Positions 15,833-49,500 of a stretch of DNA of 64,000 nucleotides are shown here, in pieces. The notes below the pieces were generated by a model, which saw only the letters and a program-made list of their open reading frames with translations, was not told the origin of the DNA and ran no database searches. Made by a program: the position numbers and the translations under genes. The stretch lies in assembly GCA_000165345.1 (NCBI GenBank), contig CM000434.1:544001-608000 (forward strand). The letters are read 5' to 3'. Numbering within the stretch: position 1 is the first letter of the stretch; the number at the start of each line of letters is the position of its first letter.

Positions 15833-16696
15833 ATGGAAAATGGGAAAAAATCATTCCAAATAGTGGTTAATTCACTTATTTCTGGAGGCATTGCTGGACT
15901 TTTTGTTGAAACAATATTATATCCAGTGGATGCGATAAAAACGAAGATGCAATATAGATCGTTATGCAAAAATAGTGTGTTATTTTTTAGTACTAGAAAC
16001 TACTACAGGCACATATACTCAGGATTCAAGTATTCGGCATTTGGTTCTTTTATTTCTTCTTCCATTTTTTTCGGCACATTCCATTTTTTAAGTAATTATT
16101 CACCACAAGTGAAATATAAATCTCTAAAAACAATGCAAATTTCATTGATAAGTGAATTGTTATCATCACTGTTTAGAGCTCCCTTTGAAGTGATCAAACA
16201 GAATATACAAGTTAGAAACAAATCGTTTTTGGGACACTTTTACACTAATTATTCATTATTTAGGCATTGCCTTAATTTTAATAAAATAACTGCTAGCCTA
16301 ATCAGAGACATTCCCTTTTCCATTATTCAGTTCTCTCTTTGGGAGAAGCTGAACAGAACAGGAGATGGAGTCTTAGGTGAAAAATGCAACTTTAAAGATC
16401 TATTAAGCGGAATCTCTGGAGGTATAAGCGGTGCTATAGCAGCATTAATTACCTCGCCAGCGGACAATATAAGAACATATATTTTTACTAAGGCAAAGAC
16501 AAGAAGTTCAAATGTCTCGATTCTAAGTGCAATAAAAACGATTTACGGACTTAATGGAATAAAATCATTCTATATAGGATCGTTTCTACGTGCTTTATGG
16601 CTTACCATTGGTGGAATAATATATTTTGGTTGCTACCAACTTTGCAATTCTGCATTGGAAAAAATGTACCACAGTTTTGAAACATTACCTCAATGA
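15833..16696 (+). CDS. Mitochondrial carrier family (SLC25) protein
   Basis: Three carrier repeats with P-x-D/E-x-x-K/R signatures (PVDAIKTKMQ, PFEVIKQNIQ, PADNIRTYIF). Six TM helices in the ORF. Confidence 0.75.
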   Translation: MENGKKSFQIVVNSLISGGIAGLFVETILYPVDAIKTKMQYRSLCKNSVLFFSTRNYYRHIYSGFKYSAFGSFISSSIFFGTFHFLSNYSPQVKYKSLKTMQISLISELLSSLFRAPFEVIKQNIQVRNKSFLGHFYTNYSLFRHCLNFNKITASLIRDIPFSIIQFSLWEKLNRTGDGVLGEKCNFKDLLSGISGGISGAIAALITSPADNIRTYIFTKAKTRSSNVSILSAIKTIYGLNGIKSFYIGSFLRALWLTIGGIIYFGCYQLCNSALEKMYHSFETLPQ

Positions 16697-16697
16697 A

Positions 16698-17687
16698 CTA
16701 AAATAGACTATTTTCTCTGTCAAATAAATATATAGCAATAAATATTGAGTTAACAGCCATCTGACCAAAATATATTCCCCAATTTACATTTCCAAGTATT
16801 TCTTTAATTCCAACGTCGCCCCTACATAACCCAATATGGTCGCTCGACTGGCATCTTTTTACTGTTGAAATAAGAGCTAGTGGTGAAAGTAATGATGTAG
16901 TAAAATTGCTGACCCCATGTTTAAGATGCTTTTTATTATGTGGCTTTGTTTTAGTAGCGAGCAATTTATCTTCCGTGTCTTTCGCACGTTGATAATTAAT
17001 AGATAAATAAGAATATAAACTATTCTTTATTAAATCTTCGGTTATTCTAAAAATAATATGTGCAGTAACACCTTTCCACAAAGAGGTAATACCTTCTTCT
17101 GAATTTACTGAAAGTTGAATTAGTGAATATATCCCTATTACTGACTCTTCAATTTTGTCCTTATCGTCTTGTAACCCAAGATTATAGCGCTTAACGTCAA
17201 AAATTGCCTGTTGTGTAGAAATTACAAGCAAAGGGTATGTGATTATTTCAGAGATATACTTTGCGCTGCTCTTTACATATACTGGTTTTATAAATGAATC
17301 GTGAACTTTACTATGTCTTTTATATACTTTTAAAAGTTGATCATGTAATATTCGTGTAAAATATGAGTGTAAAGTCATAGGTATGAAACCTCTATACAAT
17401 CCCCAATATCCTTCTTCATTATAAATACACCTCAGAGAATCAAAAATAAGTTTTATTCCGCTTAAATTATAAATTATTCCTCTGCTTATCCTTGAACTTG
17501 AAGTTGTTGAATGTGCACTTTCAATGCTATTACTATTTTCTAAATAGCTTTCGAAATAAGGTAAGCACATTGACTTAAGCTGAATTGTGTAAACTGGATA
17601 AATAAGGACTAGTTGAGGGCTATTTAGCACGCCATATAGCCTTAGCAGTTGCCATTGTTCGTTTAATTTTATCTTTGGAAAATTCAT
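16698..17687 (-). CDS. Divergent mitochondrial-carrier-like protein (329 aa). Its stop lies 1 nt from the stop of the convergent carrier gene.
   Basis: Degenerate carrier motifs (IYPVYTIQLKS, GYWGLYRGFIPM, ITYPLLVISTQ, GITSLWKGVTAHI) and a tripartite hydrophobic layout. Confidence 0.45.
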   Translation of the reverse strand: MNFPKIKLNEQWQLLRLYGVLNSPQLVLIYPVYTIQLKSMCLPYFESYLENSNSIESAHSTTSSSRISRGIIYNLSGIKLIFDSLRCIYNEEGYWGLYRGFIPMTLHSYFTRILHDQLLKVYKRHSKVHDSFIKPVYVKSSAKYISEIITYPLLVISTQQAIFDVKRYNLGLQDDKDKIEESVIGIYSLIQLSVNSEEGITSLWKGVTAHIIFRITEDLIKNSLYSYLSINYQRAKDTEDKLLATKTKPHNKKHLKHGVSNFTTSLLSPLALISTVKRCQSSDHIGLCRGDVGIKEILGNVNWGIYFGQMAVNSIFIAIYLFDRENSLF

Positions 17688-20206: not shown

Positions 20207-21605
20207 ATGGATATCGCATTAAATATTGAAATTCCTGGAGTTGTTTTGAATGATGGTAAGTTAAAGCATTGCTTTAATATTGAATATCTTTTTAATTGCT
20301 AATATAGATTCTAAACGAAACGAAATTTTAAAAAAAGTTAGATCTTTTTGTGGTTGGCGTCAGGATACATTCCCTGGCTCACAGCCTGTGTCCTTAAACA
20401 GACAGAAGCTCGAGTCTTGTATTGGGAAAAATCTTTATGTGGCCTGCGAAAAGACTGATGGAATTCGGCTTCTTCTCTATGCAGCTAGTAGACGCGTTTT
20501 TCTAATAGACAGAAACCAAAAGATTAATATGGTAAAGATGACCCTTCCAAGTTCATTTTGGGATACTGTTTATGAAGTAAAGAGCTCAAATAAAAATATC
20601 GAGAATTTAGAAACTCAAAAAATCTTTTCAGGAAGAAATTCTGAATTATTAAACCTAGATCCAACAAGAGATGAGCATGCTCAATACTTTCAACAGAATA
20701 CTCTATTGGATGGAGAACTTGTAAAAGATACTATTGAGGTTGATGGGCAAAAGAGATATATTCTCAGATACTTAATTTATGATTGCATTTGCATTGAAAG
20801 AGACGATACTGTTAAATCCCTACCTTTGTTAGAACGGCTCAAGCTTGCATATCTAAAGGTTGTCATTCCAAAATGCAAATATGACCAAAATAGGTCTACA
20901 ATATCAATAGATCCAACTCCATTTGAGTTATATCTTAAGGACTTCTTTGAAGTCGACGAGGTTCCAGCAATATTGAACTTTTCAAGGCGTTTGCCACATC
21001 CCAGTGATGGAATCATCTTCACCCCAGTCCACCTACCATATGTTCCTGGAACGTGCCCTCAGCTACTTAAATGGAAACCCCCTCACTTGAATACAGCAGA
21101 TTTTGCAGCAATATTTTATGCAGAATCAGAATCATATGACTCTCGTGTATTTCTCGAGCTTTTGGTTGGGATCCGTGGTGTTAGAGCAAGTGTGAATTGC
21201 TTCTGTGTACCAAAAGGAAGTGTATACAATCAATTAGTAGATCAATTCAAATTATATAGAACCTCTGGTCAAATATTGGAGTGCTACTACGATGAGAATG
21301 CCATTTATTCTAAACCTACTAAGTCCGAAGATGGGAACATCTTATGGAATAAGCCATTTACCACAGTTCAAGGTGGGTGGATAGTTGAAAGAATTAGATC
21401 CGACAAGAACTCCCCGAATGATATTAATACAGTAAACCGTGTATTTGAATCTATTAGAGATGGGATCAACAGTGAGGTATTAATAAATACTATAAAACTA
21501 TACCAGAAAAGTGGGAAAAAGTCTGTTGTTGAGTACTGCAATGTCCCTGAGTTTGTTACAAATTGTAGAAAAGGTCAAATCGAAGACAAAAGAAGTGAAA
21601 TATAG
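20207..21605 (+). CDS. CEG1: mRNA capping enzyme guanylyltransferase. Two exons: join(20207..20255, 20308..21605). The track ORF start at 20280 is a TTG artefact.
   Basis: Exon 1 encodes MDIALNIEIPGVVLND; the EIPG motif is typical of capping-enzyme N-termini. The 52-nt intron runs GTAAGT...ATATAG. Exon 2 carries FPGSQPVSL and the KxDG active site VACEKTDGIRLLLY. Confidence 0.8.
20256..20307 (+). other. Spliceosomal intron (52 nt, GTAAGT..TAG), phase 1, in the capping-enzyme gene
   Basis: Splicing restores the frame between the ATG-containing micro-exon and the main ORF. Confidence 0.7.
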
Positions 21606-21631
21606 CTAATAATATTTGTACTTTATTATAT

Positions 21632-24186
21632 CTAATGTCTTTTTCCTCTCTTTCCTCCGCCTCTAAAACTATTTTTCGCTACATCTGATCTATAAGCAAG
21701 TTTAGGTAAGCTAATTACTTCGATTAAACTCAAAATTTCCTCATCGCAATTTGGGCATCCAACGAAATGTTCTTGTGATGTTTTTTCTTTACAAATCTTA
21801 AGTTTTCTAGATCCACACTTTTCGCAACGCTCGCCTAGAGAAAGCCTTTCACAAATATTTTTTTTTATGGAGAAGGATATTGAGCACCTTGAGCAATCAA
21901 ACCTCCAATCAGAAGTTGAGCTCGAATCCATTGTGATAATCCCATCTCTACAATCCTGACTTGGGCAAGCCATAAAGAATGTTGATTTTAAAGAGAAGTT
22001 ACATGTCTGGTGAGGGCAAAACTTGCAAAGCATATTTTCTTTAGCATCCAAGAAAGGGGGATCATTGTAACATCTTGGACAAAAGATACTTTTTTTCCCT
22101 TTTTGGTCAATGAATAACAATAACTCAAAGTCATCGATTGGGCATTTAAGTTCTTTGTAGATTTTAATTGTGCCTCTTTGAGGGATATCTAAATAAATCT
22201 CACAGAAAGAACAGTACAGTCTCTGAGGAAGAATATTAGAAATATATGTCAAATATCTTTTGCATTGTCCGCATCTGCTAATCCTACTACAAGAAGCAGT
22301 GATATTTGTAAAGCCAAGCCGGAATAACGACTCGAAAAGACTAATATTCTCCGCAAAATAAAGAAACTTGAGTTTGAAAACTGATAGAGAATGTTTAAGT
22401 ACTGCTTTGTGATTATATTTACCCTTAGCAATGAGATCGACATATTTCTCCATCTCGCTTCTAATCTTGGGTAGAACAAGCTCATGATCTATATTCATTA
22501 TTCCATGAACAAGAGCAATACCTAATTTTGTGGGTTCCAACCTTCTTCCTGAAGCTAATTTGACATACTCGCGCTCTTGAATTTTTTGAATATGCGTTGG
22601 CATTGAAGCATCGGTGCCAATTCCATGTTTTTCCATTAAAGAAAGAAGATCGCTTTCGCTTAGAATTGGTGGAGGTTTTGTCTCTTTAGAAAGAATCTCA
22701 ATATTCTTTATTGGTACTACTTCATTTAGAGTAAAATCTGGAATTATATTTGACTCATGACACGCAGCTCTACCCTGGATTACCGAAAATCCGTGGTCTA
22801 TTACTTGATTCCCACTAATTATAAAGATTTCACCATTAAGATCAAATTTAATGGTCCTGTTAATCATTTTTATATCATTTGATATTGTAGCAAAAAAATG
22901 ACGAGTAATTAAATCGTAAAGTCTCCAAGAATCTCCATCCAAATCATTCTGAGTTGCAGACCTAACGGGTGTAATAGGAGGGTGGTCTCCTAAATCCAAG
23001 CCATCCTTTCTTGGTAAGTTGAAGCCTTTCTGGAGCAAATCTGAAGAATAGCTTCCCCATACTGAATTATTCTTAAACATCTGAATTTATTATAAGAAAA
23101 TTAATTGCTATGCACATAATAACTTACCGCTATTGTAGATTTAATATCGAAATTCTTTGGATATCTCGACGTTTCTGTTCTAGGATATGTAGTAAAACCA
23201 GAAAGATAAAGCTTTTCTGCAATGTTTAGTGTTTGAAATGGCCCTATTCCAAGTATTGTTGATGACAGTTTGAGCATACTAACAGTATTTAAAGGTAGTG
23301 GTCTAATTCTTCTGGAGTTCTTGCTTGTGATATCAACAACCCTTGCTGATAATGGCTTCTTATTTTGAATTAATTGAAGAAAGCAATTTGCGACCTGAAG
23401 TTCAAATACCCTTGAACGACTCCAAATAAGATTTATATCTTGAGAATCTTTAGATAAAGTAGCAGAAATCGTATAATATTTTTCTGGTATAAAGCTATTT
23501 ATAGAGTCCCTTCTTTGGACAGTAAAAAAAAGGGTCGGAGTTTGGCAAGGGCCATAGGAAATTATTGAGCTTTTATTAAAATCTCCAAACTTGCTCTTTA
23601 AATACTTTGTTTGCAATCTTGAAAAAGCAACTCCTATTTTTAGGTCTAACTCTTGTCTTACATCTACGGCATCCGATTCATTTTTATTTGGGAATGTCAG
23701 ATTTTTCATTGCAAAAAAAATATCGCCAGGAGAAATTGAAGAAAACTTTGCTCTGAAAATCCAATCCCTCTGATCTCTTCCTTTGCTCATGTTATTTGAT
23801 ACAACATTAATTACTTCGAAACATATATTTTCCCCTTCTCTATCGCAGTCGAGCCAAAGTACTAAATAACTACAGCCTTTAGATTCTTTTTCTAAATGCG
23901 AAACCATTTTGGATGAAGATTCATTTTTTATTATTGGTGCATCAAAAAGAGAAACTGGGTCTGTTTTTTCCCAGTTAGAATAACTTTGAGGAAAGTCTAT
24001 TTCAAAAACATGGCCTGCAACTGAAGTTACTCTAAATTGAACATTCATTCCCATAAAAGTTCCATTAAACTCGTGTACAGGAGTTTTTCCACGTCGTGTA
24101 TCTAACTTTCCGTTTGAAAGTATCCTTGAAATAGTATCCGAAATTGATGGCTTTTCGGCCACCATTAACACTTTAATTGGTGACAT
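21632..24186 (-). CDS. TOP3: DNA topoisomerase III. Two exons: join(complement 24186..23128, 23080..21632), about 835 aa. The track shows it as two separate ORFs.
   Basis: N-terminal Toprim VLMVAEKPS..., then LSGFTTYPRTETSRYP. Exon 2 continues with LMEKHGIGTDASMPTHI and a C-terminal Cys-rich zinc-ribbon region. The 47-nt intron GTAAGT...TTCAG joins the ORFs in frame (...STIA|MFKNN...). Confidence 0.85.
23081..23127 (-). other. Spliceosomal intron (47 nt) in TOP3
   Basis: On the minus strand GTAAGT lies just after codon GCG (Ala). The acceptor TTCAG directly precedes ATGTTT. Phase 0. Confidence 0.75.
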
Positions 24187-24293: not shown

Positions 24294-24633
24294 CTATTTT
24301 TTATGTTGGTATAAGCTATCTATCTTAGAGCTTCCTAGATTTATTATTTTAGGGCATCCATCTCTATCTTTTTCACAAATTGTACATTCTCTACAATAAT
24401 ATGCATCCGAAACACCCTCGGAACCACAAATTATACATCTCCCCTGAATTAAATATTGATGAAAACTATTCATGATGCAGAAAAAAGATACTTACCTTCT
24501 GAGATCCATAGTTGCACTCGTTACATATTCTTACAACAGTTTCAGGATGCACTAGTGAGTCACATATTGGGCATCTGCCTTCGCATCTAACGCATAAACG
24601 CCCAATTGCGACTCCAGGCTGCTTCCTACACAT
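24294..24633 (-). CDS. PHF5A: PHF5A/Rds3/SF3b14b splicing factor. Two exons: join(complement 24633..24496, 24443..24294), 95 aa. Absent from the ORF track.
   Basis: Translation [46 protein letters not shown]|[40 protein letters not shown] matches the highly conserved PHF5A Cys skeleton. Intron GTAAGT...TTCAG, 52 nt. Confidence 0.85.
24444..24495 (-). other. Spliceosomal intron (52 nt) in PHF5A
   Basis: GTAAGTATC...TTAATTCAG on the minus strand, phase 0. Confidence 0.8.
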
Positions 24634-24769: not shown

Positions 24770-25120
<351 letters not shown>

Positions 25121-25148
25121 ATTGTTACATTATTAATACAATCTGAAA

Positions 25149-25958
25149 TTAGCTAACGGGGAGATGATAAATTGAGAGATCGCTAAAAGAACTACAGAAT
25201 ATGGTTTTGTAATCATTCACTGGAAAATTAATTGTACTAAAATTCATCTTTGAAAGAGAGGTTGATAAAACTTTGCAATATTCACACCTTTTGTTAAAAT
25301 TCTCGTTAGAATCAATTTGAAAGGTTTCTAAATTATTTCCCCATACAATCATTCGAGCTGAATCTGAATATAGTGTTTTCCCTTCACCGCTATTAAAGTA
25401 ATTTATTATCATCCCAAAAACGCAGCGATCGCAATGTGGCATAAAGAATAATATATTAATTTGACTGTCCCTACCATACAATTTATTTTTTAATTGGTGG
25501 TTAACTGTATTTAAAGGTATACTTAAATCATGTGATGTGAAAACCTCAATATGAGTTTTAAATTCCATAAATAATTCAAAAATGAGTTCTCTATCAGCTT
25601 GAGTGAATTCAGGATCGCAAAAGTAAATTCCTTCTAAATTTATTCGTTCATTTAAAGCAATAACTGCTGCAAGCTGGAAAAATGAGGAAAGATTAGAATT
25701 GATTGTAGACTCTAAACTTCCTAGGCCAATAACAAAAAAGACATTATTGTAACAAATACACCTACCTCTCAAAATGCATCTGGAGCTCGAACATTTCCTT
25801 CCTTTTATCCAATTTTCAAAGATTTCAGTCTCTAGATGTTCAACTATAGTACCCCAAAATTCGCTTTTCAATAGCTTTCTTTTACATTCCAAAACTTTTG
25901 CCTTAAGACTTCGTATATTGACATTTGTATTTATATTTTTGTCAATACTGCTTTTCAT
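25149..25958 (-). CDS. SRR1-domain-like protein (269 aa)
   Basis: Core VFFVIGLGSLESTINSNLSSFFQLAAVIALNERI...IYFCDPEFT resembles the SRR1 family motif (GlG.....QLa..l.l ... yDP.f). Confidence 0.4.
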   Translation of the reverse strand: MKSSIDKNINTNVNIRSLKAKVLECKRKLLKSEFWGTIVEHLETEIFENWIKGRKCSSSRCILRGRCICYNNVFFVIGLGSLESTINSNLSSFFQLAAVIALNERINLEGIYFCDPEFTQADRELIFELFMEFKTHIEVFTSHDLSIPLNTVNHQLKNKLYGRDSQINILFFMPHCDRCVFGMIINYFNSGEGKTLYSDSARMIVWGNNLETFQIDSNENFNKRCEYCKVLSTSLSKMNFSTINFPVNDYKTIFCSSFSDLSIYHLPVS

Positions 25959-38485: not shown

Positions 38486-38568
38486 GACAGTGTGGCCGAG
38501 TGGTCTAAGGCGTCAGACTTGAAATCTGATGTGGTCTCCACGCGCAGGTTCAAATCCTGCCACTGTCG
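38486..38568 (+). tRNA. tRNA-Ser(UGA): tRNA-Ser (anticodon UGA), class II with a long variable arm
   Basis: GACAGTG/CACTGTC acceptor. D-arm GGCCGAGTGGTCTAAGGC. Anticodon loop CTTGAAA. Variable arm TGTGGTCTCCACGCG. T-arm CAGGTTCAAATCCTG. Near-identical to canonical eukaryotic tRNA-Ser. Confidence 0.95.
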
Positions 38569-38569
38569 C

Positions 38570-43235: not shown

Positions 43236-43331
43236 TCAAATTGATTTTTTTTATTAACAAAGCTAAATTACAAAAAAAAAAAAAAAAATATGCAAAAAAC
43301 TTCTAATTTAGAGAATTAAGTACTCATATAG

Positions 43332-43934
43332 TCAGTCAGTCATACCTGGTACTTTATTTATTGGTTTTCTACGTCTAACTTGTTTGCTTTTAGGTTTATT
43401 TGAGCTTTTCTCTGTTTCCTCGCTTCCTACACTTGTTAATGAAGCTTCAGTGTAGGATCTTTTTGATTTTTTATCTCCAACAACTTTCCAACCTCCTGAA
43501 TCATTCTTATCTATTTCAAATGATAAGCCTTGTATATGTTTTGTTGACGGAACAAATTGTTCACTCTTTTCAGGAATTTGTTTTTCCTCGTCCTCGCTTC
43601 CTTCAGTATCTAAAGGCGGAATAAATGGCTTTGATAGAGTTTTTTTTTGATTAGATTTGGAACTTTGCTGCACGATCTGTTGAGGTTCTTTATTATATTT
43701 CTGTTTATTATTCCCCTTCTTTTTATTTTGTTTCTTGACCTAATTAAATAATTCGAGTCAATTTGCTAGTTTAAATAAACACTTTAAACTCACCTTCTTC
43801 TTTGTTAACTCAGCATAGCAGATAAAAGGAAACACAATTGAGAGTGTAATCAAAGTAAAAGAAATAAAAATGGCAGTGGGGTTGCCTACTGAAAGATTTT
43901 CTCTAATTAATTTAATCAAATTTACGTCAAGCAT
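43332..43934 (-). CDS. Small signal-anchored Lys/Ser-rich protein (about 182 aa). Two exons: join(complement 43934..43794, 43739..43332).
   Basis: Upstream exon MLDVNLIKLIRENLSVGNPTAIFISFTLITLSIVFPFICYAELTKKK joins in frame through GTGAGT...TTAATTAG (54 nt) to the track ORF (V)KKQNKKKG.... The track ORF alone starts at a GTG. Confidence 0.4.
43740..43793 (-). other. Putative spliceosomal intron (54 nt)
   Basis: GTGAGTTTAAAG...AATTAG on the minus strand, phase 0. Confidence 0.4.
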
Positions 43935-43970
43935 TATTAATAAAATCTTAAATAAAAAAAAAAAAAAATC

Positions 43971-45157: not shown

Positions 45158-45899
45158 CTAAACAACGTTTTTATCAGAAAAGTACAGGGATTCTTCCAAA
45201 TTGTTTATTTCATCAAAGTTTACAGTATTCTCAACGGTCTATAGGAATAATTATAAATATTATAAGGTAATCTTTCTTTTTTCAAACTCACCTCCGTCTT
45301 TCCTTTCAATCTAGCAATAGAAAAAACTCTTAACATTTGAAGGCAAAATCTAGATGATGTTAGGATTTGTTCAAATATATCAGTGGCCTAGAATGTTATT
45401 AGTGAATTAACTAACGCGTTAATATTTATATTTAACTTACTATCTGGTTATTTCTTAAATCGGCAATTTTTTTTGTAGCAAAAAGTCTTCGAATATCACC
45501 ATTTAAGAATAATAATGAAAGGCAGGTCAATGCAACAACAAAGTCAAATACATTATTTACTTTGTTAAAAAATCTTTTTTTCATTAAGAATAGTTTAATT
45601 ATTACTTCAAATGTCAAGGTTAGTGTTATAATTGTTTCCAGGAAAATAGAAAATCTACTTCCTGATTGAGCCCTAAACAAGCCACTGAAAAGAACCAAGA
45701 TGTTTAATAAAAAAATTCCAAGGTAGAGATATTTTGAAAACTCAGAATAGTATAATCTTTTAACTATTGTAATAGCCCTTTCCTCACATGTTAAATTTGA
45801 AGCCCAAAATGAAAACCCTTGATCTCTGGAGCTTCCGTTAATTTCAAAGTTGTGAAAATCGGTACTAGTAAGTCCTCCAGGGTATCTATACATATCCAT
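45158..45899 (-). CDS. Four-helix voltage-sensor-domain (VSD) membrane protein, Hv1-like, with no pore domain. Three exons: join(complement 45899..45441, 45387..45292, 45238..45158), 211 aa.
   Basis: S2 LETIITLTLTFEVIIKLFLMKKRFF carries the E...FE..K charge-transfer pattern. S3 NKVNNVFDFVVALTCL carries N..D (compare Hv1 [28 protein letters not shown]). An S4-like SRFCLQMLRVFSIARLKGK is encoded by exon 2. The track ORF runs through the first intron (GTAAGT) to a false stop. Both introns are 53 nt with canonical ends. Confidence 0.6.
45239..45291 (-). other. Spliceosomal intron 2 (53 nt) of the VSD gene
   Basis: GTGAGTTTGAAAAAAG...TTCCTATAG, phase 0. Confidence 0.5.
45388..45440 (-). other. 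Spliceosomal intron 1 (53 nt) of the VSD gene
   Basis: GTAAGTTAAATAT...ACATTCTAG, phase 0. Confidence 0.55.
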
Positions 45900-46099: not shown

Positions 46100-46957
46100 A
46101 TGCAACAGATACAATCAAAACTCTCAATTATCTCAAAATCTATTAATAGTAAATCTCTAAATTCATTTGAATTTAACAATAATTATAATAGTCAGAACCC
46201 TAAATTCCAGATTGTTGAAGAACAAAAATCAGGCAATAACAGTGAATTAGAATTTTTGATTGACGCATCTAAATTTTACAGCCTAATTTGTCCTAGTTTA
46301 TCAAGCCGTTTAATTTGCAAAGTTGCAAATTTAACATCCGAAATCAGTCAGACAAAATCATATAGTGATTATTTTTCAGGAAAAATTTGTCCAAAATGTT
46401 TTTCAGTATATTTAATAGGAATTAATTGTAAATTAGAGGTCAAGCCTATTAAAGGGATTATTAGGAAAAGACTGAAAAAGAAACTACTCAAGCTTAGCAA
46501 AATTAGTGGCCAGAATTTCCAAAATTATTCTTTTAAGAATATATTAATTTCATGTAAACTTTGCAAATTTAGTTTTAAGAAACCTTATTGGGAGAAAAAG
46601 ATTAAAAATACGAATAGACATGAACCACTAAATGATGCTCAAAATAATAAAAACAAAGTCGAAGACATTCTTAACTACTCTAATTTTATCTTAAGCAATG
46701 CTGATACAAGCATTCAAGATCAATGCCGTCAAAATAGTAATAAAAGTGGTAATTCACAAAATGGAAATCCGAACACTAATAAAAATCACAGATTCTTTAA
46801 TAAGACTCAAAAGGCGGGCTCAATGCTTCAAGAAAAAAAAAATTCTTATGTTGACATTACTAATTTAACTGAGTTAAATAAGGATATAAAGAGCGAGCAA
46901 AGCAGCCAATCTACACAGGGCAATAGTTTTTATGATATTTTATCCATGCTTGAATGA
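46100..46957 (+). CDS. Zinc-ribbon protein with an Asn-rich C-terminal extension, possibly an RNase P Rpr2/Rpp21-like subunit
   Basis: Two CxxC pairs (CPKCFSVYLIGINC ... CKLCKF) with a Lys-rich linker, and an N-terminal helical region (EFLIDASKFYSLICPSLSSRLI), arranged as in Rpr2. Weak. Confidence 0.35.
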   Translation: MQQIQSKLSIISKSINSKSLNSFEFNNNYNSQNPKFQIVEEQKSGNNSELEFLIDASKFYSLICPSLSSRLICKVANLTSEISQTKSYSDYFSGKICPKCFSVYLIGINCKLEVKPIKGIIRKRLKKKLLKLSKISGQNFQNYSFKNILISCKLCKFSFKKPYWEKKIKNTNRHEPLNDAQNNKNKVEDILNYSNFILSNADTSIQDQCRQNSNKSGNSQNGNPNTNKNHRFFNKTQKAGSMLQEKKNSYVDITNLTELNKDIKSEQSSQSTQGNSFYDILSMLE

Positions 46958-46971
46958 CATGACCTTTTGAA

Positions 46972-48376
46972 ATGTGTTTTATTTCATTGAATTCGTATAT
47001 TAAAGATGTCCCAGTTATTTTCATTTTTGGTACAACAGGTAGATTAACTTATTACATTCAATAAGGCTTAAATAACTTTTTTAAATCTTTGTTATTTCTA
47101 TAATGTGTAGCTTCTGGCAAAACTCGTTTATCTATAGATATCTGGAAATATCTTGACAAAAAAGTATGTTTATTCAATTCATATAGAAAACCATATTTTC
47201 TTTTTAGGGATTTAAATCAGAAATAATAAATTGCGACTCAATGCAACTATACAAAGGCTTTGATATTGGAACTGCTAAAGTATCCAAAGAAATTCGTAAT
47301 AGAATCCCTCATCACCTATTAGATGTTTTTGATATTGATGAAGATTGTACAGCCTCCAAATATATCAGTATAGCAGTACCAATAGTAAGTTGTGATTTAA
47401 AAGTAAATTCAGTGCATTTATATCACATATAGATCGATAGATTGATCAGCGAAAATGTTACTCCAATTATTGTTGGTGGCACTCACATGTACCTTAAAGC
47501 GTTGATTTGGAAGTCTATTATTGACTCAGAAACATGTAGTAGCGTAAATCCTTCAATTAAAGATGAAGAATACTCAAACTTCACAAACGAGGAGTTGCTT
47601 GAACAGCTTTCGAAGATTGACCCTGAAAGAGCATTGTCATTAAATATAAATGACCGACGAAAAATAATCAGAGGGATAGAGGTAAATTTTTATAAATATT
47701 TATTAATCACAGTTAAGTAGATTCATAGATTTATAACACAAACGGGTTAACATTTACAGAGTTAAAGAAAATTCATCCATACAAAGTTAGATACAACAAT
47801 AGTGTATTATTTTGGGTAAGAAATAACAATATAAGAGAATGCATAGATATAAGAATAAATGAAATGATTAATGTAAGTTGCAATTCAGCGTCATATTTAA
47901 ATTTGAACATTCTTCCATAGGATGGATTATTAAAAGAGGTTTTTTTACTTAAGGAGAGGTTATTAACTTGTAATAAATATATTGGTTTATTACAAGGAAT
48001 AGCCTACAAAGAATTCATAGATATTCTCGACAAAAAAACAAAAATAGAAGACATTTCCGAAGAAGAACTCAATATATGTATTGAAAATTTGCGTATAAAG
48101 ACGTTTCAATACAGTAAGAGACAAGAGAAATTCATTAAAAAACATATAATTAATCGCGGATTAAATGTAAATATATTAGAATTTGATGGTGAAGTATCAG
48201 ATAGTCAGAAATTGGAACTACTTGAATTTAATTTTCAAAGTACTTCAATTATTTATAAATACTTGTCTAAATTATTTAATTTAAAGAATAACTCTGAAAG
48301 CAAACAAGTTTATTCATCTTGGGAAAAGTCAGTGTTAACTCGCGCATTCATGATTCTGGATAAAAAATTAAGTTAA
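46972..48376 (+). CDS. MOD5: tRNA dimethylallyl(isopentenyl)transferase (MiaA/Mod5/TRIT1). Six exons: join(46972..47038, 47111..47163, 47208..47384, 47433..47681, 47729..47872, 47921..48376), 381 aa.
   Basis: Spliced product: MCFISLNSYIKDVPVIFIFGTT|ASGKTRLSIDIWKYLDKK|GFKSEIINCDSMQLYKGFDIGTAK...|IDRLISENVTPIIVGGTHMY...RGIE|IYNTNGLTFTELKKIHPYKV...|DGLLKEV...QYSKRQEKFIKK. It carries the P-loop, DSMQxY, VGGT and C-terminal MiaA motifs in order. The track shows only three fragments. Confidence 0.8.
47039..47110 (+). other. Intron 1 (72 nt, GTAGAT..TGTAG) of the IPT gene
   Basis: Needed to join the GTT | ASGKT P-loop halves. Phase 1. Confidence 0.6.
47164..47207 (+). other. Intron 2 (44 nt, GTATGT..TTTAG)
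   Basis: Phase 0. Joins ...YLDKK to GFKSEIINCDSMQ. Confidence 0.65.
47385..47432 (+). other. Intron 3 (48 nt, GTAAGT..ATATAG)
   Basis: In-frame intron containing a TAG. Removal joins AVPI to IDRLISENVTPIIVGG. Confidence 0.7.
47682..47728 (+). other. Intron 4 (47 nt, GTAAAT..TTCATAG)
   Basis: Only this acceptor keeps the frame open into IYNTNGLTFTELKK. Confidence 0.65.
47873..47920 (+). other. Intron 5 (48 nt, GTAAGT..CCATAG)
   Basis: Joins ...RINEMIN to DGLLKEVFLL... Confidence 0.7.
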
Positions 48377-49500
48377 TATGGCGAAATACTCCTTGACAGA
48401 GAGCGTGAGGAGTCACTTTCTGGAGAAATTTCTCCATCACTAGGAGGATAGATTTTTGTATCCTCTTTAATATGTTTTTTGTGTTTTTCTGAACTTATTC
48501 TATTCAATTCAACTGTCGAATAAGGGTTAGATCTAGTGTTTATATGTTTGTTTCTCGGCCCAAAACTGTTATAGTCACTCTGCACAGTCGACTTATAATT
48601 ATTTCCGAGCTCTTCATATCTCGTTTGGTTATTTTCTCTTCTGGATGAATGATTACCATAATTATCACGGTAATCCATATGCTCCCTATTTCTCCTATCT
48701 CTATAATTGTTTGAATAGTAATAAGCACGGCCTTCACCGGAGTAGCTTTGTCTATGTGATTTATATCGGAAATCGCCTTTATGAGCTATATTTTCATGTC
48801 TGTAGTTGCTATCCCTATTGGGAGAATGCGCTTTGATCCATTCTTTTAAATCTTTTGCTTGCTTTCTAATTTTTAGGTAGCCAACATGAATTTTACCGTT
48901 AAAGTGATCATTTAACCTTTGGTCATTGTCAGTTTCTGAAAGAAATGCGGCACAAATTTCACATGGGTGAAGTTTTTGACGATACATTCCATTCTCAACA
49001 TCTTCCTTTGTAGCAGATATCTTCATTTTTTGTTGATTTAGTCTTGTTAAGTCTTCCATCCTCTTCAAAGAGCCATCTATATCGCCATTTGCACCTAAAT
49101 CATCAATCTCCTTCATAATTTCTTTAATCTCAAGATCTAATGCCCGTATATTTTCATCTTCAAGTTTTGAACTTCCTGAAAGCTCAGCACGAACACGGTT
49201 TCTTTCAATCTTTTTATTGCAATCATCTACCATTCCCTGAAATACTCTCAAACTATCTGTCTCATATTTAATTCGAGTATTTCCTTTCGATTCTCTTTCA
49301 CTTAAGTACTTTTCCCTTAAAACTTCCGAATGGATATTTTTACAAGGACCCATATACAGCTTTGTATTTTCAAATAATTCATGAGGACATAGTCCGCATA
49401 AGTAGAATTTACAGACATCATTATCATGAGGGTTTTTCTTCTCTATTGGAGCTTCAATCCCTCCCATCAAATCTTCAATCTGACGTCTGATTTCATCCAT
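48373..49500 (-). CDS. LUC7: LUC7-like U1 snRNP protein with an Arg/Asp/Glu/Tyr-rich C-terminal tail
   Basis: N-terminal MDEIRRQIEDLMG and zinc finger CKFYLCGLCPHELFENTKLYMGPCKNIHSE. Second finger HPCEICAAFLSETDNDQRLNDHFNGKIH. Its stop codon overlaps the IPT stop on the opposite strand. Confidence 0.85.
   Translation of the reverse strand: MDEIRRQIEDLMGGIEAPIEKKNPHDNDVCKFYLCGLCPHELFENTKLYMGPCKNIHSEVLREKYLSERESKGNTRIKYETDSLRVFQGMVDDCNKKIERNRVRAELSGSSKLEDENIRALDLEIKEIMKEIDDLGANGDIDGSLKRMEDLTRLNQQKMKISATKEDVENGMYRQKLHPCEICAAFLSETDNDQRLNDHFNGKIHVGYLKIRKQAKDLKEWIKAHSPNRDSNYRHENIAHKGDFRYKSHRQSYSGEGRAYYYSNNYRDRRNREHMDYRDNYGNHSSRRENNQTRYEELGNNYKSTVQSDYNSFGPRNKHINTRSNPYSTVELNRISSEKHKKHIKEDTKIYPPSDGEISPESDSSRSLSRSISPY

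Follow-up and report, generated by a model that had tools for sequence, protein, structure and literature searches.

The tRNA isopentenyltransferases (IPTs), among them bacterial MiaA, yeast Mod5 and human TRIT1, bind the pyrophosphate of dimethylallyl pyrophosphate (DMAPP) through a P-loop and use a catalytic Asp (Asp46 in Mod5) to activate N6 of A37; the sequence A36-A37-A38 in a tRNA is necessary, but not sufficient, for these enzymes, and a C-terminal zinc finger is a hallmark of the eukaryotic ones (PMC5699536). In this study, we analyzed a 64,000-nt window of Cryptosporidium parvum DNA (NCBI GenBank assembly GCA_000165345.1, contig CM000434.1, positions 544,001 to 608,000 of the forward strand; coordinates below are those of the window, position 1 being its first letter), in which an original prediction, made from the letters alone, had placed an intron-rich IPT gene at 46972-48376. 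Judging from sequence comparisons, this chromosome 6 gene very probably encodes a tRNA dimethylallyltransferase (EC 2.5.1.75) of the MiaA/Mod5/TRIT1 family, with six exons and a product of 381 aa. The gene and its 381-aa model are already known and annotated, the predicted exon set being equal to the current evidence-based GenBank annotation.

The original prediction had called for five introns of 72, 44, 48, 47 and 48 nt and a 381-aa product, and both were reproduced when the window was spliced at the coordinates that it implied. The parts of the gene are as follows.

46972-48376, plus strand: IPT gene, six exons; coding sequence (CDS) of 1146 nt, encoding 381 aa plus a stop
46972-47038, plus strand: exon 1, 67 nt, from M1 through base 1 of the Ala23 codon; carries beta-strand 1 plus the first half of the P-loop (..IFIFGTT)
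47039-47110, plus strand: intron 1, 72 nt, phase 1, non-consensus donor GTAGAT, acceptor TAG; splits the P-loop as GTT|ASGKT
47111-47163, plus strand: exon 2, 53 nt; second half of the P-loop (ASGKTRLSIDIWKYLDKK)
47164-47207, plus strand: intron 2, 44 nt, phase 0, GTATGT..TAG
47208-47384, plus strand: exon 3, 177 nt; DSMQ motif with the catalytic Asp50, and PHHLLD motif
47385-47432, plus strand: intron 3, 48 nt, phase 0, GTAAGT..TAG; in frame, its final codon being TAG
47433-47681, plus strand: exon 4, 249 nt; GGTHMY motif and helical insertion domain
47682-47728, plus strand: intron 4, 47 nt, phase 0, GTAAAT..TAG
47729-47872, plus strand: exon 5, 144 nt
47873-47920, plus strand: intron 5, 48 nt, phase 0, GTAAGT..TAG; in frame, with a terminal TAG
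47921-48376, plus strand: exon 6, 456 nt including TAA; C-terminal part of the IPPT domain and a 77-residue tail that lacks a zinc finger

The start is fixed by an in-frame TGA at 46960-46962, so that no start is possible further upstream; exon 1 has just one other ATG, at 47006, and it is not in frame. All five introns are of the U2-type GT..AG form, and their removal gives one open frame with conserved motifs; unspliced, the frame falls into short open reading frames (ORFs), 30-95 aa long, that are called one by one in prokaryote-style gene calling. The earlier remark that intron 3 is an in-frame 48-nt intron with a TAG is true, and it applies equally to intron 5, for which it had not been made. 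With respect to RNA structure, no Rfam family was matched at E<=1 over 46800-48500. Intron 1 folded no better than shuffled sequence (z=+0.29), and no notable folding relative to shuffles was seen for any intron other than intron 3, which has a hairpin of -8.4 kcal/mol (47385-47432; z=-2.8, with 3 of 200 shuffles doing as well); among five introns, this may be chance.

When the 381-aa product was compared with protein profiles, it matched the Pfam IPPT family (PF01715) at E=1.4e-56, with 192.3 bits (cut-off 23.6) over profile positions 1-242 of 243, a match that chance cannot explain. It also matched TIGR00174, the NCBIfam MiaA equivalog, with 208.4 bits (cut-off 148.65) over profile positions 1-280 of 288, and positions 1-8 of that profile were matched solely when exon 1 was in the model. 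Alignments to solved MiaA and Mod5 structures were obtained at E=1e-33 to 1e-35. Alignment to Mod5 or TRIT1, which had been proposed as a check of the spliced product, bore it out, a Mod5 structure being matched over residues 15-307 at E=8.5e-33. In the structure alignments four of the five exon junctions were gapless, and junction 2 (K40|G41) fell inside a 5-residue gap. The P-loop, GTTASGKT (residues 20-27), spans the junction of exons 1 and 2 and satisfies the pattern G-x-T-x-x-G-K-[ST]; it exists only once intron 1 has been spliced out. In the alignment to yeast Mod5, Asp50 (within NCDSMQLY) falls opposite the Asp of NSDSMQVY (chain residue 34, which is Asp46 of the full-length protein), and it is invariant in every Cryptosporidium model containing that position. 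The PHHL and GGTH motifs are also intact. The modification made by such an enzyme (i6A37) would stabilize the decoding of codons beginning with U. A candidate substrate, judging from its anticodon loop (C-U-U-G-A-A-A, which carries A36-A37-A38), is tRNA-Ser(UGA), the sole RNA gene detected in the window, located at 38486-38569 on the plus strand, 8.4 kb upstream of the IPT gene.

An exact-sequence look-up found the 381-aa sequence in QOY41137.1 (CPATCC_002789, C. parvum IOWA-ATCC) and WRK32856.1; a gene called on CP141123.1 has an identical span. The paper on the IOWA-ATCC annotation reports its introns as 100% supported by RNA-seq (PMC8744675), which for the IPT junctions is indirect evidence of splicing. 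In C. hominis, a 381-aa orthologue (CUV06679.1) has 98% identity, the same span and the same exon count. In many public Cryptosporidium records, older or automated ones, the gene is missed, truncated or fused. The IPT region of BX526834.1, the first chromosome 6 record, is without any annotation; a 143-aa model comprises exons 3-4 only (99.6 bits on TIGR00174); a truncated model has 292 aa; the 319-aa model of C. hominis 30976 (OLQ17657.1) and C. tyzzeri (TRY51222.1) reaches 185.4 bits and matches the profile from position 17; the 361-aa model of Iowa II lacks exon 1 (192.5 bits); and fused records joining IPT to the upstream gene Rpr2 have 600 aa (one C. meleagridis assembly) and 614 aa (chipmunk genotype I). 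By the standard set in the original prediction, an exon set with a longer or better-conserved product would have counted against the model. Such a set did not emerge: the 361-, 319- and 143-aa alternatives are shorter, and the 381-aa model tops the TIGR00174 scores and is matched from position 1. Automated pipelines plausibly break this gene because of its weak donors and short exons; the short exons, the three non-consensus donors and a 14-nt spacer behind Rpr2 are likely the cause of the broken models. The main value of this analysis lies in an annotation check, and the comparative evidence shows the 381-aa six-exon model to be the one that should be transferred to other species. The gene does not represent a novel class of genetic element.

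The two genes that flank IPT are given here together with the upstream spacer.

46100-46957, plus strand: Rpr2/Rpp21 (RNase P subunit), single exon, 285 aa; Pfam PF04032 at E=6.6e-8; an intronless 285-aa gene in four assemblies
46958-46971, plus strand: Rpr2-IPT spacer, 14 nt, with the in-frame TGA and a 3-codon mini-ORF, ATGACCTTTTGA (46959-46970)
48373-49500, minus strand: LUC7 (U1 snRNP), single exon, 375 aa, convergent with IPT; Pfam PF03194 at E=4.9e-61

As predicted, the IPT start lies 14 nt past the upstream stop, the Rpr2 TGA (46955-46957) ending at 46957 and the ATG beginning at 46972. The predicted overlap of stop codons was likewise present: the IPT TAA (48374-48376) and the minus-strand LUC7 stop (48373-48375) have 2 nt in common, the overlap between the CDSs being 4 nt (48373-48376). 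This overlap is also 4 nt in C. hominis and chipmunk genotype I, and 8 nt in C. andersoni. The exact LUC7 protein was found on the C. parvum records CP141123.1, CP029785.1 and BX526834.1 (chromosome 6).

Two deposited annotations (OLQ17657.1 and TRY51222.1) use the 319-aa model, according to which the main mRNA would start at ATG 47006, skip exon 2 (donor 47039 to acceptor 47207), lose a sixth intron at about 48241-48301 and, with the frame shifted by that splice, stop earlier, at about 48337-48339. This arrangement removes the CDS overlap with LUC7, and the weak GTAGAT donor could favor an alternative acceptor. However, it deletes the P-loop needed for DMAPP binding, and it scores 185.4 bits on TIGR00174 compared with 208.4 bits for the 381-aa model. 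Moreover, neither the acceptor AG of the sixth intron nor the alternative TAA is conserved in chipmunk genotype I, which keeps the 381-aa frame (with an in-frame 6-nt indel) and the C-terminus SWEKS.L.R.FMILDKKL. The C. andersoni annotation includes exons 1 and 2, and later C. parvum annotations adopted 381 aa. We therefore regard it as very unlikely that the 319-aa model represents the main mRNA.

The 614-aa and 600-aa records raise a different alternative, namely that Rpr2 and IPT are one fused gene and protein. The two genes lie on the same strand with a 14-nt spacer, two public records fuse them, and both products act on tRNA. Nevertheless, IPT is read in a frame other than that of Rpr2, and its ATG comes shortly after an in-frame TGA. 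C. hominis and chipmunk genotype I keep both the Rpr2 stop and the 14-nt length of the spacer, which is 18 nt long in C. ryanae and reaches 33 nt in C. andersoni. The annotations of C. parvum, C. hominis, C. andersoni and C. ryanae, like a second C. meleagridis record, treat the two as distinct genes, and read-through reads are known to make false fusions in this genome (PMC8744675). Given these data, a genuine fusion is extremely improbable, and the six-exon, 381-aa IPT gene is considered as a separate unit below.

For comparison, the corresponding loci were taken from C. andersoni, C. ryanae, chipmunk genotype I and C. hominis, and IPT was rebuilt in the first three with acceptors chosen to maximize similarity. 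In these three, all five introns fall at the same protein positions as in C. parvum, and the five positions are kept in C. hominis as well. The lengths of introns 1 to 5 are 72/44/48/47/48 nt in C. parvum, 71/44/44/47/48 nt in chipmunk genotype I, 97/160/91/57/63 nt in C. ryanae and 56/56/72/73/61 nt in C. andersoni. The C. andersoni reconstruction also matches the span of that species' own annotated 340-aa protein, with the same five intron positions. On this comparison, the intron positions are older than the split between gastric and intestinal Cryptosporidium, and the introns would be old ones, retained while the genome lost most others.

Exon substitutions between C. parvum and chipmunk genotype I numbered 43, 25 and 101 at codon positions 1, 2 and 3, respectively (p=1.9e-12). 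The single exon indel, of 6 nt and in frame, is in the tail of exon 6; frame-breaking indels occur in introns 1 (1 nt) and 3 (48 nt compared with 44 nt). Intron 4 is 66% identical to its chipmunk counterpart, as against 83-88% for the exons. These data bear on the idea that the locus is a decaying pseudogene whose introns are chance GT..AG pairs, an idea to which the breaking of the frame into 30-95-aa ORFs and the empty annotation of BX526834.1 would lend themselves. The third-position excess, the intactness of all catalytic motifs and the keeping of five splice-site pairs across the genus, while intron length and sequence diverge freely, speak against it. The probability of a pseudogene is thus minimal, and this reading is effectively refuted by the comparative data.

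The non-consensus GTAGAT donor noted in the original prediction is present at intron 1 and conserved across relatives: C. hominis, chipmunk genotype I and C. ryanae share it, C. andersoni has GTATAT in its place, and the exon side is CAG throughout, which would add pairing with U1. As a separate observation, intron 1 (47039-47110) is 100% identical to that of C. hominis, and 65 of its 71 aligned positions agree with chipmunk genotype I. Agreement over introns 2-5 is about 75% (Fisher p=0.002), and intron 1 is even slightly above the flanking exons (85-87%). With respect to C. ryanae and C. andersoni, similarity is gone except at the donor. It is conceivable, though quite unlikely, that Rpr2 and IPT form a two-gene read-through unit in which the weak GTAGAT donor and the conserved intron 1 would serve as a splicing checkpoint setting the amount of IPT with a P-loop, the exon-2-skipped form being the off state.

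With respect to the type of enzyme, neighbor-joining grouped Cryptosporidium with two zinc-finger-type eukaryotic proteins, P0013 and P0081, in 100 of 100 bootstraps; the tree was distance-based, and these two were the sole zinc-finger-type eukaryotic sequences in the set. Pairwise distances were about 1.3 substitutions per site to bacterial and eukaryote-type proteins alike. Alternatively, the gene would have come in as a bacterial-type MiaA, through horizontal or endosymbiotic transfer, and gained its five introns later in an intron-poor lineage. For such an origin it can be said that the top matches outside Cryptosporidium were MiaA proteins of bacterial length (157 bits, compared with 146 for the best zinc-finger-type protein), that the closest solved structures were Bacillus and Staphylococcus MiaA, and that IPT lacks a zinc finger and passes the bacterial equivalog TIGR00174. 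However, identity was about 32-37% to all outgroups, so that no specific bacterial donor clade stood out, and the distance tree joined Cryptosporidium to the eukaryotic proteins. The GTT P-loop, GGTH-Y and an 8-residue CIE insertion are moreover common to IPT and yeast Mod5 and not found in bacterial MiaA. A bacterial origin with later intron gain is accordingly judged a very improbable account, and a Mod5/TRIT1-type enzyme is favored.

Several observations weigh against a six-exon gene for a Mod5-type enzyme. Neither a study of Cryptosporidium IPT nor an enzyme assay for the IPT protein was found in the literature searched, and the gene is not mentioned in the supplement of PMC4637869. Among public assemblies, no transcript-derived contig with the spliced 381-aa ORF was found, the only hits being two genomic chromosome records. 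The curated annotations of C. hominis 30976 and C. tyzzeri have the different, 319-aa exon set. GTAAGT was reported in 84% of 213 Cryptosporidium introns in an old annotation (PMC2483917), and the IPT gene has it at 2 of 5 donors (introns 3 and 5; binomial P for <=2 of 5, 0.032); this shortfall bears on donor strength, not on membership in U2-type GT-AG introns. Over the last 45 codons (48241-48376), substitutions relative to chipmunk genotype I numbered 10, 5 and 9 at the three codon positions; because there is no third-position bias, constraint on the C-terminal tail is weak. The same segment must double as the LUC7 3′ untranslated region (UTR), and conservation there may belong to either gene. 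The final ~45 nt of IPT are nearly invariant despite the absent third-position bias. As to the Mod5 grouping, it comes from a distance tree with two AT-rich sequences, and a common AT-rich composition may have a part in it. Finally, no zf-met or zf-C2H2_jaz match was found in IPT at E<=0.01. The 77-residue tail (residues 305-381) contains 0 Cys and 1 His, and a tblastn search of the window with the zinc-finger segments of P0013 and P0081 found no missed zinc-finger exon. From its sequence, we infer that IPT is a Mod5/TRIT1-type enzyme that lost its zinc finger.

The original prediction had set the IPT gene apart from intronless neighbors. Introns in other genes of the window were inferred by comparing annotated spans with product lengths and then solving for the missing introns. 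The claim held for Rpr2 and LUC7, both single-exon genes, and failed for a 211-aa gene two upstream of IPT and for four further genes in the window.

45158-45899, minus strand: 211-aa gene, no Pfam match; two 53-nt introns, 45388-45440 (GTAAGT) and 45239-45291 (GTGAGT)
20207-21605, plus strand: mRNA capping enzyme; one 52-nt intron, 20256-20307
21632-24186, minus strand: topoisomerase III; one 47-nt intron, 23081-23127; split by prokaryote-style calls into 361 + 482 aa
24294-24633, minus strand: PHF5; one 52-nt intron, the likeliest position being 24444-24495; the frame stays open as well with an alternative that has a GTGCAA donor
about 43330-43934, minus strand: 158-186-aa gene; at least one intron, with a GTGAGT donor near 43792; public lengths 158 and 186 aa

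Intron-bearing genes thus number 6 of about 33 in the window, with 11 introns, five of them in IPT; the six other introns that were reconstructed have GTAAGT (four) or GTGAGT (two) donors. In the C. parvum genome, about 10.8% of genes have introns, intron-containing genes have 2-10 exons (mean 2.6), and the mean intergenic distance is 552 bp (PMC4637869). A six-exon IPT gene is in the upper tail of the C. parvum range, not outside it.

Tight packing, in the same way, is a regional or genomic property and not peculiar to IPT, because five junctions in the window have CDS-to-CDS gaps of 28 nt or less (-4, 1, 14, 26 and 28 nt; the median is near 200 nt). Long ORFs lie densely in this AT-rich window (28-40% GC), and the 14-nt spacer and the stop overlap would be ordinary outcomes of genome compaction. 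Both imply that the transcription start or 5′ UTR of IPT, and its 3′ UTR, lie inside the neighboring genes. Other close junctions are those of two adjacent mitochondrial-carrier genes on opposite strands, 1 nt apart (16696-16698), of the capping enzyme and topoisomerase III (26 nt, 21605-21632) and of CutA1 and SRR1 (28 nt, 25120-25149). The 211-aa gene sits between a prenyltransferase alpha-subunit gene and Rpr2; genes of 211 and 214 aa hold the same position in C. andersoni and C. ryanae, respectively, and older records give its first exon alone (153/155 aa). T tracts of about 17-19 nt (minus-strand reading), at 43270-43300 and 43950-43970, flank the 158-186-aa gene. In each of the five species examined, the two tRNA-maturation genes Rpr2 and IPT are neighbors on one strand, 14-33 nt apart.

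When IPT is set beside the known systems, it resembles yeast Mod5 (PDB 3eph) and human TRIT1 in its PF01715 domain and in the catalytic Asp of DSMQ. It further shares with yeast Mod5 a P-loop without Pro (GTT.. / AGTT..), GGTH-Y and the 8-residue insertion with CIE, which precedes the KRQ helix. Like Mod5 and TRIT1, it would be expected to act on cytosolic A36-A37-A38 tRNAs; unlike them, it is without a C2H2 zinc finger and is encoded by a gene with five very short introns. Mitochondrial tRNA substrates, a further difference from Mod5 and TRIT1, are not expected because, to our knowledge, Cryptosporidium has no organellar genome and no organellar tRNAs. We also know of no isoprenoid-precursor pathway of its own in Cryptosporidium, and IPT would therefore depend on salvaged DMAPP. 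A Mod5-type IPT that lacks the zinc finger offers a modest lead for work on tRNA modification or drug targets. With bacterial MiaA (TIGR00174; PDB 2qgn, 3d3q, 2zm5 and 3crm), the Cryptosporidium enzyme has in common that it passes the profile cut-off, has a core of similar length, lacks a zinc finger and aligns at E=1e-35. Bacterial MiaA differs in having a GPT P-loop and GGTGLY and in being without the 8-residue insertion, whereas the Cryptosporidium IPT, the product of a spliced nuclear gene, has a 77-residue tail at its C-terminus.

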